DNA of 29,428 bases from Balneolaceae bacterium (GCA_007134665.1 SLKH01000225.1:1-29428), one strand, 5' to 3'; counted from the first letter of the stretch, positions 25,224-29,428 are shown. Translations and numbers: made by a program. The notes: generated by a model not told the origin, from the letters alone.

Positions 25224-25973
25224 ATGAAACTTAAAAAAATGAAACCAGCACTTGAGAGGAAAATTGACCTATATGTTCATGGTAAGCTGGATGCAGAACA
25301 GATAGATGATTTATGGGCCGAATTGATTCAGGATGAGCATGCACTGGATTATTTAAAAACAGTGGCAAGCCTGAAGGGAATTGTTGAAGAAGATAGTAAA
25401 ATTCATAATCTGGTGGAGGAAAGTTCCACATCAAACCATGACAAAACAAATTGGTTTTTGGCAGCAGCTGCAGCCGTCATATTAATCGTCGGTGGTTTTG
25501 GATTGATTACATTTAGCGCGGAAACGGATGTAATTCAACCAATTACAACTATTGAACTTGATTATTACAGGTCAGCTGATGGAACTACAGATGGTTCCGG
25601 TGGAGATGAAGTAATTCGTGAAGCTATTATACTTGCAAATGATGGGCATCATCAACAGGCAGTACGTATTCTTGAAAACAGGCTGGATGATATTAGCAAC
25701 AGCAGTTCAAGAGCCCTGATTTTTATAAATGCAGGCTCGATTCTCTATAACATCTCGATGTATGAAGATGCTGCTGCCCGGTTTGAGAAAGTGATTGAGA
25801 TTAATGACAGTGATCCGCTGGTAAGAGAACGGGCTTATTGGTACCTTGGTAATACCTACTTTCAGTTAAACAGGTTGGATGAAGCCAAAGAAGCTTTCCA
25901 AAACGCATATGAATTAAACGGAGCATATAGCCGGGTAGCACAGAGTTATTTGCGTGCTTTGGCAAGCAGGTAG
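25224..25973 (+). CDS. Anti-sigma-like single-pass membrane protein with C-terminal TPRs
   Basis: N-terminal IDLYVHGKLDAEQIDDLWAELIQDE helical domain; TM WFLAAAAAVILIVGGFGLITF; TPRs (AGSILYNISMYEDAAARFEKV, YWYLGNTYFQLNRLDEAKEAFQNAY). Confidence 0.75.
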   Translation: MKLKKMKPALERKIDLYVHGKLDAEQIDDLWAELIQDEHALDYLKTVASLKGIVEEDSKIHNLVEESSTSNHDKTNWFLAAAAAVILIVGGFGLITFSAETDVIQPITTIELDYYRSADGTTDGSGGDEVIREAIILANDGHHQQAVRILENRLDDISNSSSRALIFINAGSILYNISMYEDAAARFEKVIEINDSDPLVRERAYWYLGNTYFQLNRLDEAKEAFQNAYELNGAYSRVAQSYLRALASR

Positions 25974-25992
25974 ACTGAACTTTGATTCAATC

Positions 25993-28900
25993 TTAATACT
26001 GTTGATTTTCACTTAGTCTTTTTCGGGTGGCAATACATCCTGCGATAAATAAAACCATCAACAAAGCAAACATTGTATTTTTTCCCCGTGGTTCAATAAC
26101 CGGGTTACTGTCGCCGTTCAGCATGTATGGCCCCCAGTAATGCGGATTAGCATTATTATTTTTCAAAAAATGAATTTTTGCACTTCTAAGCGATGCTGAT
26201 TTTGATCTCCCTTTGTTGAGCTGTGTATAGAATTCTATTGCAAAGTCTGAAGCAAACTGATCATTAACAGACCATGAATTTAAGATAAGGCTTCGTGCTC
26301 CCGCATAACGTAATGCCCTGCTGATGCCCATTATACCCGAACCCTGAAAATAATCACCTGACCCGGATTCGCATGAATTCAACATAACCAGGTCGTTTCG
26401 AAGATTCATTTCAAATAGTTGATAAGCAAAAATTTGTCCAGATATTTCATTGTGATCTACATTACTATTTTCATCAGGATAAAGATAAATTGTGGAGAAA
26501 AGCGGGTCATTCTCAGAAATTTTACTATGTGATGCAAGATGAAGAATCCTGGAGCCGGTTGCACTGGAACTGAAGGCCTGAGGAGTTGCACTGTTTTCGA
26601 GTAGTGATTTCTTGTTCTTCACACGGTCAAGCCGCTGAACAATTTGTTCAATTTCATGGGGTGCTTTTGGCAAAGAGATTAACTGCCCATCTCCGGTATG
26701 GCTAAAATCAGATATACCTATTCCAGTAAAATCAAGTTCATAAAAACCCTTTCTTTCATTCCGCATGAACTCTTGCAAATTATTGATGTATCTGACCTCC
26801 ATCTGCTCAATCAAATACCTTGCAGAACCATAGCTGAAATCTGAATCAGGTTCTTCAACTGGTAATACATCCAATGGAAGCTGGTATAAATAACTGTCAG
26901 GTGCGATAACAAGCTTGTTAGTATGGGACGGGAGTTCATTCAGCCCAAGATACTTATAAATATCATACAAATAGTTCAGGTTGGTATTACCTGTGGTTAA
27001 ACCGCTTATTGCATTTTCAAACAGCTGTGCCTCCTGAGGGCCAAATGGCAGTTTGTTTAGCCTGATATTTTGATTATCAATCATGATTAAATAGAGATGA
27101 TCCAGTATCCTCGTGGAATGTAATATCAATTCTCCACCATTTAACCGGGATTGAATATTCCAGGTTTTGAAGCCCTGAAATAAATCGTCAGTTGTGGTTT
27201 GGCGGGCAATCTGATTTCTGCGTGCAGTGAGTGTTGAGATTTCATTTTGAATTTCAAGCCGTTCACTGTCTCCGGACACAAGCAGCCTTTTACGCAACTG
27301 ATCGATCTGTTGTCCTATCCTTCTGTTTTCAGTTAATTGTTCCTCTGTTAGTAAATCAGCCTGTAAAAGCGGATTTTCAAGGAGTGAAGCATCGTTTATG
27401 GTCTTTAACTGGTCCAGGATATTTGTAAGGTCGTCATATCGATGTTGTACAAGTAGCAGATCAGCGTAAAGCTGAAACAGATAGAGATAGGAATCTTCAA
27501 TATGCCAGTAACCGGCTTCAATATCTGTGGTATTGCGGGATCTGTCGATGACCTGGTCATAAACCAGGTTAATGATTTGTTCAGCATTTCTCAATCGGCC
27601 TTCCTGAAACGCGATGTCAGCCTCAATTCTTCTTGCGTTAACAAGCACATAGAATTCAGCAACTGTCACATCATGAATATTAAATTCCCGGATGTACTGC
27701 CTGGCTCTCTCAAGATTGCCTTGCAGCAGTTCGATGTTCGCCAAACCGGTTAGTGCTTCAAGATACATTGGATCATTATTATTTTCCGAAACTATGGCAA
27801 GTACTTCCAGATATATATCCCTGCTCTCTGAATAATCACCCATTTTTTCATGTAGTCCGCCTAACTCATAAAGTGCCCGCACTTTCAACCTATAATCGGT
27901 AATGGTTTCAAGCAGTTCTGAAGCATCTTCAAGTAATTGGAAAGCTGTATTCAGATCATTTAAATATTGATTGTAGTACACCGATTTTGAAATAATAATG
28001 GAGGCCAGCTCATTGAGATTACCGGTAGATTCTGACAACTGCATGGCCTCTTCGATGTATTGAAGTGCAAGATCCCAGTTTCGGTTACTCCGATAATAAA
28101 TATGAAGATTTCTGTAAATATTAAGCTGGTCACTGTAATCATTTCTTTCAACCGCAAATTCAAGAGCACTCATCTGATTTTCGATATATTGATTACTTTC
28201 ACCAAGTTTGTAATACACAAGGCTTAGATTATTTAGCAGGCGTGTTTTAACTGTAGCATTCAGATTTAGTGTATCTGATAAAGCGGAAGTGAAAATTTCC
28301 CTTGCTTCTGAATATCTGCCAATCGTATACAGGTACCCCCCGTGAGCAGCCAGAATCGTATTTAGTGTCAGTTTATCACCTGAATGCACAGTCAGGGGAA
28401 TCGTTTGTTTTCTTTGAACCTCGAGACTTAATTCAATATAACCTGTGCGATACAATGCAAAATCAAGACTCCAGTAAAGATTCCGCTTGGTCATTGTATT
28501 CGGGAAATTATCGAGAGAAATAAACTCGTCGTAAAGACTCAGGATCGTATAAAATCGATCACTGCTGTAAAGACTCTCAAAAATAGATGCGTATAACAGA
28601 TCATTAACTAAAGGATTATACGAAGTTTGGTACTCAGTTAAAGCTGTGAGGTGGAGATATGCCCGATCATAAAAGTCCGAATCAATACCTTCAATATTTC
28701 TCGAATAAAAAAGCATTAAAAAAATAGAAAAATCCCATCTATCCCAAATCAGATCCTCTGAATGGATCGTTGAGCTGTTTGCGATAGATTCAGCTATGTT
28801 TTTTAGGTTATTTTTAGAACTCTGCTGATAAAATTGCGAGAAATATTCAAGCCTTTCATCTTCTGAAGCAGTCAGCAATAATAAAAAAAGGTGCAGGTGT

Positions 28901-29181
28901 TCATTATCAAAATGATGTGACAGCTTGTTGATTAAAGCCCGGGCACCCTGGTCCCGGTCAAGCAATTCAATCCAATCCACATTCAACTCGGTGCCAATCT
29001 CTTTAACCCCGATCGCATTTCTATCATTATCAAGGAAAATGTCAACCAAAGACCAGAGTGATTCTGATACCGACTCCTGCTGTTCAATATTGTCAAAATA
29101 GGTATGGATTTGACGTTCCAGGGGGTCCGATGTCATACCACTGGCAAACCATAAGAATATGACTGAATAAATAATATTCAT
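25993..29181 (-). CDS. TPR-CHAT (caspase-like, clan CD) protease with signal peptide and C-terminal membrane anchor
   Basis: N-terminal hydrophobic leader; central TPRs; CHAT motifs LVIAPDSYLYQLP, ILHLASHS (His), LVMLNSCESG (Cys), SLILNSWSVND, YWGPYML; terminal TM MFALLMVLFIAGCIA followed by TRKR. Confidence 0.92.
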   Translation of the reverse strand: MNIIYSVIFLWFASGMTSDPLERQIHTYFDNIEQQESVSESLWSLVDIFLDNDRNAIGVKEIGTELNVDWIELLDRDQGARALINKLSHHFDNEHLHLFLLLLTASEDERLEYFSQFYQQSSKNNLKNIAESIANSSTIHSEDLIWDRWDFSIFLMLFYSRNIEGIDSDFYDRAYLHLTALTEYQTSYNPLVNDLLYASIFESLYSSDRFYTILSLYDEFISLDNFPNTMTKRNLYWSLDFALYRTGYIELSLEVQRKQTIPLTVHSGDKLTLNTILAAHGGYLYTIGRYSEAREIFTSALSDTLNLNATVKTRLLNNLSLVYYKLGESNQYIENQMSALEFAVERNDYSDQLNIYRNLHIYYRSNRNWDLALQYIEEAMQLSESTGNLNELASIIISKSVYYNQYLNDLNTAFQLLEDASELLETITDYRLKVRALYELGGLHEKMGDYSESRDIYLEVLAIVSENNNDPMYLEALTGLANIELLQGNLERARQYIREFNIHDVTVAEFYVLVNARRIEADIAFQEGRLRNAEQIINLVYDQVIDRSRNTTDIEAGYWHIEDSYLYLFQLYADLLLVQHRYDDLTNILDQLKTINDASLLENPLLQADLLTEEQLTENRRIGQQIDQLRKRLLVSGDSERLEIQNEISTLTARRNQIARQTTTDDLFQGFKTWNIQSRLNGGELILHSTRILDHLYLIMIDNQNIRLNKLPFGPQEAQLFENAISGLTTGNTNLNYLYDIYKYLGLNELPSHTNKLVIAPDSYLYQLPLDVLPVEEPDSDFSYGSARYLIEQMEVRYINNLQEFMRNERKGFYELDFTGIGISDFSHTGDGQLISLPKAPHEIEQIVQRLDRVKNKKSLLENSATPQAFSSSATGSRILHLASHSKISENDPLFSTIYLYPDENSNVDHNEISGQIFAYQLFEMNLRNDLVMLNSCESGSGDYFQGSGIMGISRALRYAGARSLILNSWSVNDQFASDFAIEFYTQLNKGRSKSASLRSAKIHFLKNNNANPHYWGPYMLNGDSNPVIEPRGKNTMFALLMVLFIAGCIATRKRLSENQQY

Positions 29182-29308
29182 CTTATTGGGAAATAATGAG
29201 AAGTCATTCCGTAATCATACTCAGACTAATGCCAGGTATAAATCTTAAACTATATTTGACAAAAAATAAGCAAAATACCAAACTATAGCTGTTAATTGTG
29301 GATCGGTA

Positions 29309-29428
29309 TTAATCGTGGTATGTGCCGCCGCTGGTTGGCCGGTCGATGATCGGGTCCATGTCGTCGCCAATACTGCTGTCCCAGATCGAATCGTCATTGA
29401 TGAGATTCTTGTCGTTCAGTTCATTGTC
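29309..29428 (-). CDS. C-terminal 39 aa of a truncated Asp-rich ORF upstream of the CHAT gene (not in ORF track)
   Basis: Manual translation from the window end: DNELNDKNLINDDSIWDSSIGDDMDPIIDRPTSGGTYHD-stop (TAA at 29311-29309). 29 of 39 codons end in G/C, a coding-like bias. Confidence 0.6.
   Translation of the reverse strand, partial: DNELNDKNLINDDSIWDSSIGDDMDPIIDRPTSGGTYHD

Follow-up and report, generated by a model that had tools for sequence, protein, structure and literature searches.

The question raised by the end of contig SLKH01000225.1 of the Balneolaceae bacterium GCA_007134665.1 is whether a caspase-like protease encoded there acts on the anti-sigma-like protein encoded beside it and so controls a sigma factor of the extracytoplasmic function (ECF) type. 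The window, meaning the whole stretch of DNA analysed (SLKH01000225.1:1-29428; 29,428 nt), is one entire contig, C236, of a genome bin (G000) of 384 contigs that is 76% complete. The original prediction for this DNA described three adjacent genes: an Asp-rich open reading frame (ORF), a tetratricopeptide repeat (TPR)-CHAT protease (CHAT below) and a convergent anti-sigma-like protein, which has 249 aa and is named ASF here. All three are present, exactly 19 nt separate the convergent stop codons of ASF and CHAT as had been claimed, and the ECF sigma factor that was predicted has been found on the adjoining contig C259 as a divergent gene of 185 aa. The results support the view that these genes form one conserved envelope module that is independent of clustered regularly interspaced short palindromic repeats (CRISPR). 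The balance tips modestly towards a four-gene ECF module, a split version of the DdvA type, in which CHAT would serve in trans as site-1 protease and so set off the regulated proteolysis of the anti-sigma factor. The genes of the module are the following (plain coordinates are those of the window).

25224..25973, + strand: ASF gene, 249 aa (ORF), with a three-helix N-domain, a transmembrane (TM) helix, a coil linker and a TPR domain
25993..29181, - strand: TPR-CHAT protease gene, 1062 aa (Pfam CHAT PF12770 at 2e-45, plus TPRs; AlphaFold2 (AF2) model)
29309..29428, - strand: 3' end of the lipoprotein gene, 39 codons and stop, Asp-rich (ORF); its first 52 codons are on C259
C259 (L003) 7564-8121, - strand of C259: ECF sigma gene, 185 aa (TIGR02937, PF07638), divergent and upstream of the lipoprotein gene

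The window ends inside the third gene, which encodes a small acidic lipoprotein, and the rest of it lies on C259. Positions 29359-29428 of the window equal 8597-8666 of C259 (G000:C259), an exact end overlap of 70 nt, and the break could be due to tandem duplication of the lipoprotein gene as seen in relatives. Beyond the sigma gene C259 carries acetyl-CoA synthetase (acs), pntA, ksgA and groEL, and the surroundings of the module are housekeeping genes (acs, groEL, GH3). Several relatives (L025-L027) keep the order acs, sigma, lipoprotein, CHAT, ASF, GH3, which supports the join of C236 and C259 independently. The claimed absence of cas genes was borne out in the window, where Pfam recognized neither cas nor known defence domains among ORFs of at least 120 aa, and no PADLOC defence model matched any of the four module proteins.

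The first evidence that the genes belong together is their conservation. The unit consists of the sigma gene, the divergent lipoprotein and TPR-CHAT genes and then the convergent ASF gene. Twenty loci from relatives were examined, 19 of which hold an ASF orthologue; in 16 of the 19, from the same and other families of the order, ASF is convergent on the CHAT orthologue, and in one more a 4-kb insertion lies between them. Wherever the flank is long enough, the sigma gene diverges from lipoprotein-CHAT, also in G028 and G034, and a lipoprotein homologue stands upstream of CHAT. Gene co-occurrence, which the original prediction had proposed as a check, is thus seen again across the order; families f3 and f7, which are more distant, keep the unit with different housekeeping flanks (L031-L033 and L023 are among the loci with changed flanks). 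Of 41 genomes drawn from the genus, family and order, 39 encode an ASF homologue. In a sample of 151 genomes of the phylum, no full-length homologue at E <= 1e-8 came from outside the order, where two partial, TPR-only matches were seen, and the Atlas assigns the cluster of ASF itself to Balneolota. A search for related loci with the single ASF protein returned unrelated TPR proteins only. CHAT proteins of 13 genomes from the rest of the class were considered as further members and rejected, as their similarity is only at the domain level (26-33% identity); they are not taken to be this module because no sigma gene lies within 1.5 kb, and several of them are beside a MurQ-like gene.

At the boundary between ASF and CHAT, no intrinsic terminator was found in the window. 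In L020, L026, L027 and L031-L033 the two convergent genes overlap by 8-23 nt at their 3' ends; because of these overlapping ends and the promoter motif that both carry, the ASF and CHAT transcripts should overlap in antisense (L026, L027).

The second line of evidence is that promoter motif. Enumeration of bipartite words upstream of three transcription units in relatives gave TGTAACA(A)-N16/17-(C)TCTT, which was used in the form TGTAACAA-N16-TCTT and in the strict form TGTAACA-N17-TCTT. Its shape is that of an ECF promoter, with an AAC-containing -35 element and a TCT-containing -10 element. Two sites belong to the module.

25040..25067, + strand: ECF-type promoter motif TGTAACAAATGCCATGTCCGGCAGTCTT, ending 157 nt before the ASF start codon
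C259 8371-8398: promoter motif of the lipoprotein-CHAT operon, ending 43 nt before the lipoprotein ATG

The strict motif matches once in the window, before ASF (0.06 expected), and once on C259, before the lipoprotein gene (0.02 expected). In 324 kb of relatives' loci it matches 24 times against about 0.3 expected from base composition, almost always before ASF or lipoprotein genes, and three complete genomes of the family hold 8-11 matches each, against 0-2 for a reversed-pattern control. Among relatives' loci the motif precedes the lipoprotein gene in 7 of 11 and ASF in 12 of 17. Matches to sigma-70-like promoters were at chance level only. From the co-location we infer that the neighbouring sigma reads the motif, and since motif promoters drive the lipoprotein-CHAT operon and the ASF gene themselves, the circuit would contain feedback. 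The TGTAACA motif was not found upstream of the module sigma gene or of a paralogous sigma2 operon, and upstream of the sigma gene in relatives only one imperfect match (L033) was seen.

In the three complete genomes, motif sites lie ahead of lipoprotein genes (often with tandem promoters), ASF and the genes for a conserved DUF5939 protein, for exported peptidases of the M1 and S8 families, for a DUF5916/CBM9 protein and for several small proteins that are exported; no recognizable defence systems were among them. The DUF5939 protein (>475 aa) stands behind a conserved motif in all three (L072, L077 and L084; genus g33) and is the most consistent regulon member outside the module. In distant families a receiver-domain gene of about 190 aa adjoins ASF (L023:9617-10282, L030:8672-9342, L031:9769-10410 and L029:10040-10612), behind the same motif in three of these four loci; it is absent at the locus in the window's own family. 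The window's genome holds two further strict TGTAACAA-N16-TCTT sites (G000:C32:1805-1832 and G000:C324:776-803). One lies before a 131-aa AraC-like helix-turn-helix gene and the other precedes a short ORF with a TM segment, itself upstream of a PAS sensor kinase, and both may belong to the regulon.

The third line of evidence is a predicted complex of CHAT with ASF. The residues and domains that it concerns are the following.

26110..27144, - strand: CHAT (caspase-fold) domain, residues 680-1024 (Pfam; AF2 model)
26527..26529, - strand: codon of catalytic His885, motif LHLASHS, invariant in 15 orthologues (codon checked)
26371..26373, - strand: codon of catalytic Cys937, motif LNSCESG, invariant in 15 orthologues (codon checked)
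25554..25583, + strand: ASF juxtamembrane linker motif E-L-D-Y-Y-R116-S-A-D-G, candidate site-1 cleavage or docking segment (predicted coil; conservation; predicted complex)
25599..25964, + strand: periplasmic TPR-like domain of ASF, residues 126-247, including the NGAYSRV block at 232-238 (Pfam TPR_2 at 9e-11; predicted local distance difference test (pLDDT) >90)

One controlled job was run with three chains. The queried chain was the ASF ectodomain 98-249, and the other two were CHAT 226-1033 and the C-terminal 39 residues of the lipoprotein. The prediction passed, with ipSAE values of 0.73, 0.74 and 0.76 against 0.00 for the best of three controls. Of 80 solved complexes 58 attain this ipSAE mark, as do 2 of 110 mismatched pairs, counts that are only a rough guide for a job with its own alignments and three chains. 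On the CHAT side the predicted interface comprises residues 729-730, 779-786 (DSDFSYGS), 833-838, H885, 935-938 (NSCE), 971-977 and 1006-1012, and on the ASF side residue 109, residues 111-120 (ELDYYRSADG), a few TPR residues and 232-238 (NGAYSRV); these segments include conserved blocks of both families. ASF 111-120, the sole conserved motif in the unstructured juxtamembrane linker, is modelled at the CHAT dyad H885/C937, and in the model this is the geometry expected of a substrate or a pseudosubstrate. The link between protease and anti-sigma protein in the original prediction is hence backed by synteny, a shared promoter motif and a controlled complex prediction. Its further proposal that the TPR ectodomain of ASF is the target has to be changed: the predicted docking site combines the unstructured juxtamembrane linker with one TPR face and is not the TPR ectodomain as such.

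In the AF2 model of ASF (pLDDT 81.7), residues 8-65 form an N-domain of three helices and residues 76-96 a TM helix; a coil of 29 residues (97-125), which holds the conserved motif, leads to a compact TPR-like domain (126-247).

25449..25511, + strand: TM helix of ASF, residues 76-96, NWFLAAAAAVILIVGGFGLIT (AF2 model), whose AAAA core is kept in all 21 homologues

Basic residues precede the TM helix. Pfam recognizes only TPRs in ASF (TPR_2, 9e-11), and the whole ASF profile matched only TPR proteins in the PDB. NCBIfam anti-sigma models gave weak matches (E 0.0024 and 0.028) far below their cut-off. The Atlas neighbours of residues 1-100 carry zf-HC2, DUF4880, RseA_N and FecR, with scores of 0.82-0.88, and they are a lead only because the scores are below 0.9. 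The ASF gene is about 4 kb from the sigma gene and convergent on CHAT, not directly downstream of sigma. A paralogue of ASF follows a paralogous ECF sigma directly, at about 70-100 nt, in 20 of 20 loci and also in the window's own genome, where at G000:C304:2957-4366 (minus strand, adjoining ppk1) a sigma 34% identical to that of the module is followed by an ASF paralogue of 23% identity. This classical sigma/anti-sigma operon supports the anti-sigma role of ASF, which would thus be a single-pass anti-sigma factor whose cytoplasmic three-helix domain holds the neighbouring ECF sigma. The module sigma itself scores 49.9 bits with TIGR02937 (cut-off 42.9) and 25.0 with PF07638 Sigma70_ECF (cut-off 21.1), and none of the specific ECF subgroup models reached its cut-off.

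CHAT has a signal-like N-terminus, a helical N-domain, a TPR array, the CHAT domain and a C-terminal TM anchor, and its AF2 model has a pLDDT of 83.7 and a predicted template modelling score of 0.74. The two terminal segments are the following.

29131..29181, - strand: N-terminal hydrophobic, signal-peptide-like segment, residues 1-17, in all 15 orthologues
26005..26079, - strand: C-terminal TM anchor, then a basic tail RKR (sequence features in 15 orthologues; AF2 model)

The signal-like N-terminus is found in 15 of 15 orthologues, several of which have a basic n-region and an AxA-like end, and the C-terminal TM helix with a basic tail is likewise found in 15 of 15. Because of these two features the bulk of CHAT is predicted to be extracytoplasmic, and the protein would be exported, with its C-terminal helix holding it at the outer side of the inner membrane. 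The topology of the original prediction, with the exported parts on one side of the membrane, accordingly stands as judged from sequence features, with three exported parts facing one compartment. H881, H885 and C937 are invariant in the 15 orthologues, and the best Foldseek matches of the model are Csx29 (8eey_B, E 1e-14), DdvA (5e-14) and separase (1e-13); the dyad is intact, and from these invariant residues and the fold match the enzyme is predicted to be active.

Three further observations concern proteins of this kind. The CHAT orthologue of L034 (G019:C115, 858-4106) is split into ORFs of 571 and 495 aa, for which a frameshift, a pseudogene or a sequencing error is possible. A second exported TPR-CHAT protein, which has no C-terminal TM helix, is encoded at G000:C164:5162-8242 (minus strand) and in relatives (L039-L058); in relatives of family f1 its gene is about 2.5 kb from the sigma2-ASF2 operon, with scpA and an M28 peptidase gene between. 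The window also encodes, at 20324-22498, a sensor histidine kinase with a signal-like N-terminus, a long extracytoplasmic TPR array, a TM helix and then HisKA-HATPase, which shares the layout of the sensor part of CHAT and has no adjoining response regulator gene.

The full upstream ORF was retrieved by joining the contigs, and the Asp-rich ORF proved to be a gene of 91 codons for an acidic lipoprotein with a signal peptide and the lipobox LMAGC. It is thus predicted to be anchored to the membrane and is not the free peptide of the original prediction. The mature lipoprotein has 60 aa, including 15 Asp/Glu and 3 Lys/Arg. The lipobox context is LAIGLMAGC/ASVTDAN, and a like pattern, judged as a pattern only, is present in homologues from more than 15 loci. 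After the lipobox Cys every homologue found has a short conserved stretch, ASVTDA(N/S/G) in family f1 and variants elsewhere, and then a variable acidic stretch. At the C-terminus is a motif of a hydrophobic pair, usually followed by Arg/Lys-Pro, such as DPIIDRP, KPIVERP, DPIITKP or EDIIVPRP; its basic residue is missing in some orthologues (L025, L027). The gene is present in 1-3 tandem copies, and in two genomes the motif is instead duplicated within one protein. Pfam had no matching family. Most likely the lipoprotein regulates the protease or presents a signal to it.

Taken together, the module would work as follows. At rest the cytoplasmic three-helix domain of ASF would hold the neighbouring ECF sigma, while the membrane-tethered periplasmic CHAT would bind the periplasmic part of ASF, with the linker ELDYYR116SADG in the caspase-like active site (H885/C937). 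On an envelope signal CHAT would cut the linker near R116 as site-1 protease, and an M50 site-2 protease and cytoplasmic proteases would then remove the rest of ASF; two M50 homologues are encoded in the window's genome. The freed sigma would transcribe TGTAACAA-N16-TCTT promoters, and its regulon would comprise ASF (as negative feedback), the lipoprotein-CHAT operon and, in relatives, also a small set of genes for exported proteins. The lipoprotein, co-transcribed with the protease and often duplicated, would regulate CHAT or present the signal.

The original prediction had taken the Csx29/Csx30 system as precedent, but the nearest is DdvA/DdvS of Myxococcus xanthus, in which the anti-sigma factor DdvA has a fused periplasmic TPR-CHAT (PMC11506125; PDB 8rot, 8rw5). 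Removal of the TPR-CHAT makes DdvA subject to RseP-dependent proteolysis, and in DdvA the dyad is turned towards the other protomer's linker (PMC11506125). Its authors proposed periplasmic CHAT as an anti-sigma site-1 protease and could not test this, enzyme and substrate being one polypeptide and the signal unknown; outside Myxococcota and one Comamonas they found no fused proteins of the DdvA kind (PMC11506125). As in DdvA/DdvS, the module here has an ECF sigma, a single-pass anti-sigma factor with a (predicted) three-helix cytoplasmic domain and a periplasmic TPR-CHAT whose His-Cys dyad is modelled to face a flexible linker by the anti-sigma TM helix, and an RseP-type second step is available. 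In contrast to DdvA, anti-sigma factor and TPR-CHAT are encoded by two genes on opposite strands, the protease is anchored in the membrane by a C-terminal helix of its own, ASF retains a small TPR domain, and ASF residues 1-65 have no Cys and hence no CHCC zinc site. The module also differs from DdvA/DdvS in having a small acidic lipoprotein as an obligatory operon partner, in the lack of defence genes seen under the motif and in its lineage, Balneolales. It is an analogue of the DdvA type and not a member. A literature search on CHAT and ECF returned the DdvA and Craspase systems only and no split module of this kind, and the main text of the ECF reclassification paper, as distinct from its supplements, does not mention CHAT. 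In the type III-E Craspase (Cas7-11, Csx29, Csx30 and CASP-sigma) the TPR-CHAT protein Csx29 cuts an inhibitor of an ECF-type sigma (PMC10028731). Csx29 is the best Foldseek match, and the theme of a TPR-CHAT that cuts a sigma inhibitor, proposed here, is all that is shared: Craspase is cytoplasmic, RNA-guided and cas-linked, with a soluble Csx30, whereas here no cas genes were found and CHAT, ASF and the lipoprotein are predicted to be exported or membrane-bound.

Regulated intramembrane proteolysis of anti-sigma factors is represented by DegS/RseA/RseP/sigma-E of Escherichia coli and PrsW/RsiW/RasP of Bacillus subtilis. The scheme proposed here resembles these systems in a periplasmic site-1 cut of a single-pass anti-sigma factor, an M50 site-2 protease and sigma release, and the type of promoter, with its AAC-containing -35 and TCT-containing -10 elements, is similar too. 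Unlike DegS and PrsW, the proposed site-1 protease is neither a serine protease nor a metalloprotease; it has a caspase fold (clan CD) and a TPR array and is encoded with, and controlled by, the system.

Several observations weigh against this scheme. In two genomes, G001 and G028, ASF lies apart from CHAT, and in G034 ASF was not found. The N-domain of ASF (residues 1-100) has no meaningful Pfam or PDB profile match. The module sigma gene does not carry the motif, and another possible reader is an orphan ECF sigma at G000:C357:2701-3288, which is 54% identical to the module sigma and lacks an adjoining anti-sigma gene. A predicted interface is no proof of binding, ipSAE being the model's own confidence and not a measurement; the job also used CHAT from residue 226 and reported the ASF interface, not the placement of the lipoprotein. 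The join of C236 and C259 rests on the 70-nt overlap and synteny, with no spanning read. Lastly, R116 is kept throughout the ASF family, including paralogues with no adjacent CHAT, and may be structural or serve another protease. An earlier idea that tied Arg116 to the CHAT-linked copies was dropped, as a better alignment with 21 more paralogues has the Arg in all members, including the CHAT-less L035. R116 is therefore not usable as CHAT-specific evidence; it remains a candidate site.

The main rival, which we regard as unlikely, is that CHAT and the lipoprotein are outputs of the sigma regulon and not its trigger, with the sigma/anti-sigma pair sensing via the ASF TPR, CHAT, once induced by sigma, processing other envelope or secreted proteins and the ASF contact being an artefact, a tether or a pseudosubstrate. 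The sigma-type promoter of the lipoprotein-CHAT operon makes that operon a target, and the exported peptidases (M1, S8) and small exported proteins behind the motif in relatives make a proteolytic envelope programme plausible; the conservation of R116 where no CHAT is adjacent and the persistence of sigma-lipoprotein-CHAT where ASF is unlinked or not found point the same way. Three points count against it: in the predicted interface the dyad is met by the linker of ASF while the controls score 0.00, different families preserve ASF and CHAT as convergent and often overlapping genes, and the fused DdvA joins both functions in one protein.

Two other readings give the lipoprotein a larger part, and both appear distinctly less probable than a site-1 role of CHAT. 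The cleavage site of separase follows an Arg within an extended segment, and the enzyme is restrained by securin, a pseudosubstrate that is acidic and disordered. Separase (PDB 7nj1, 5mz6, 9hn0) shares with CHAT a TPR-like helical array and a caspase-fold domain; it differs in being eukaryotic and cytoplasmic or nuclear, and the partners have no sequence relationship, so that a likeness of the acidic lipoprotein to securin is drawn by inference only. Its disordered acidic make-up and C-terminal motif allow the speculation that the lipoprotein is a securin-like pseudosubstrate. In the full form of this reading, which we consider rather doubtful, CHAT would cut in trans after the invariant Arg116 and would be restrained by the lipoprotein through the hydrophobic pair, Arg/Lys and Pro of its C-terminal motif, a periplasmic counterpart of separase-securin that is wired to transcription. 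If this were true and the lipoprotein were anchored in the outer membrane, lost contact would report envelope integrity or lipoprotein trafficking.

The second of these readings, nearer to the peptide of the original prediction and similarly doubtful, takes the lipoprotein as substrate or activator of CHAT, with the C-terminal piece DPIIDRP released or presented so as to bind the TPRs of CHAT or of ASF as a switch. TPR domains commonly bind short linear peptides. The lipoprotein gene is always the first of the CHAT operon and is duplicated in tandem (1-3 copies) or in its motif, and its conserved C-terminal motif, set behind an acidic linker that varies, is built like a short linear ligand. 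Against it, the complex job reported the ASF interface alone and not where the lipoprotein sits, the basic residue of the motif is missing in some orthologues, as noted above for L025 and L027, and a lipid-anchored protein is not a free peptide.

A regulator of phage defence is very improbable here. In this reading the periplasmic TPR-CHAT would detect a phage component and sigma would turn on defence genes, by analogy with DdvA/DdvS, the only characterized relative by architecture, which controls an island of CRISPR and a cyclic-oligonucleotide-based anti-phage signalling system (CBASS) (PMC11506125). The searches of window ORFs and module proteins described above found neither cas genes nor PADLOC families, the genes that carry the motif in the three complete relatives encode DUF proteins and, among exported products, peptidases and small proteins, and the module sits among housekeeping genes. 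Equally improbable is that the genes are neighbours by descent only, with no functional connection: close relatives do share the flanking housekeeping genes, so that part of the synteny is simply inherited, but the unit stays where the flanks differ (L031-L033, L023), the motif is shared and the complex prediction passes its controls.

The reading of CHAT as a trans-acting site-1 protease has the merit that the module is easily testable, because its parts are separate and could be expressed, mutated and mixed one by one: the enzyme, the segment predicted as substrate (ELDYYR/SADG), the lipoprotein as candidate regulator and a defined promoter motif as read-out. Periplasmic TPR-CHAT proteins are common in Bacteroidota-related phyla, and this wider group is almost entirely uncharacterized. 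If cleavage is shown, a function would be assigned to periplasmic TPR-CHAT proteins of this sort, and caspase-fold proteases would join serine proteases and metalloproteases as triggers of regulated intramembrane proteolysis.

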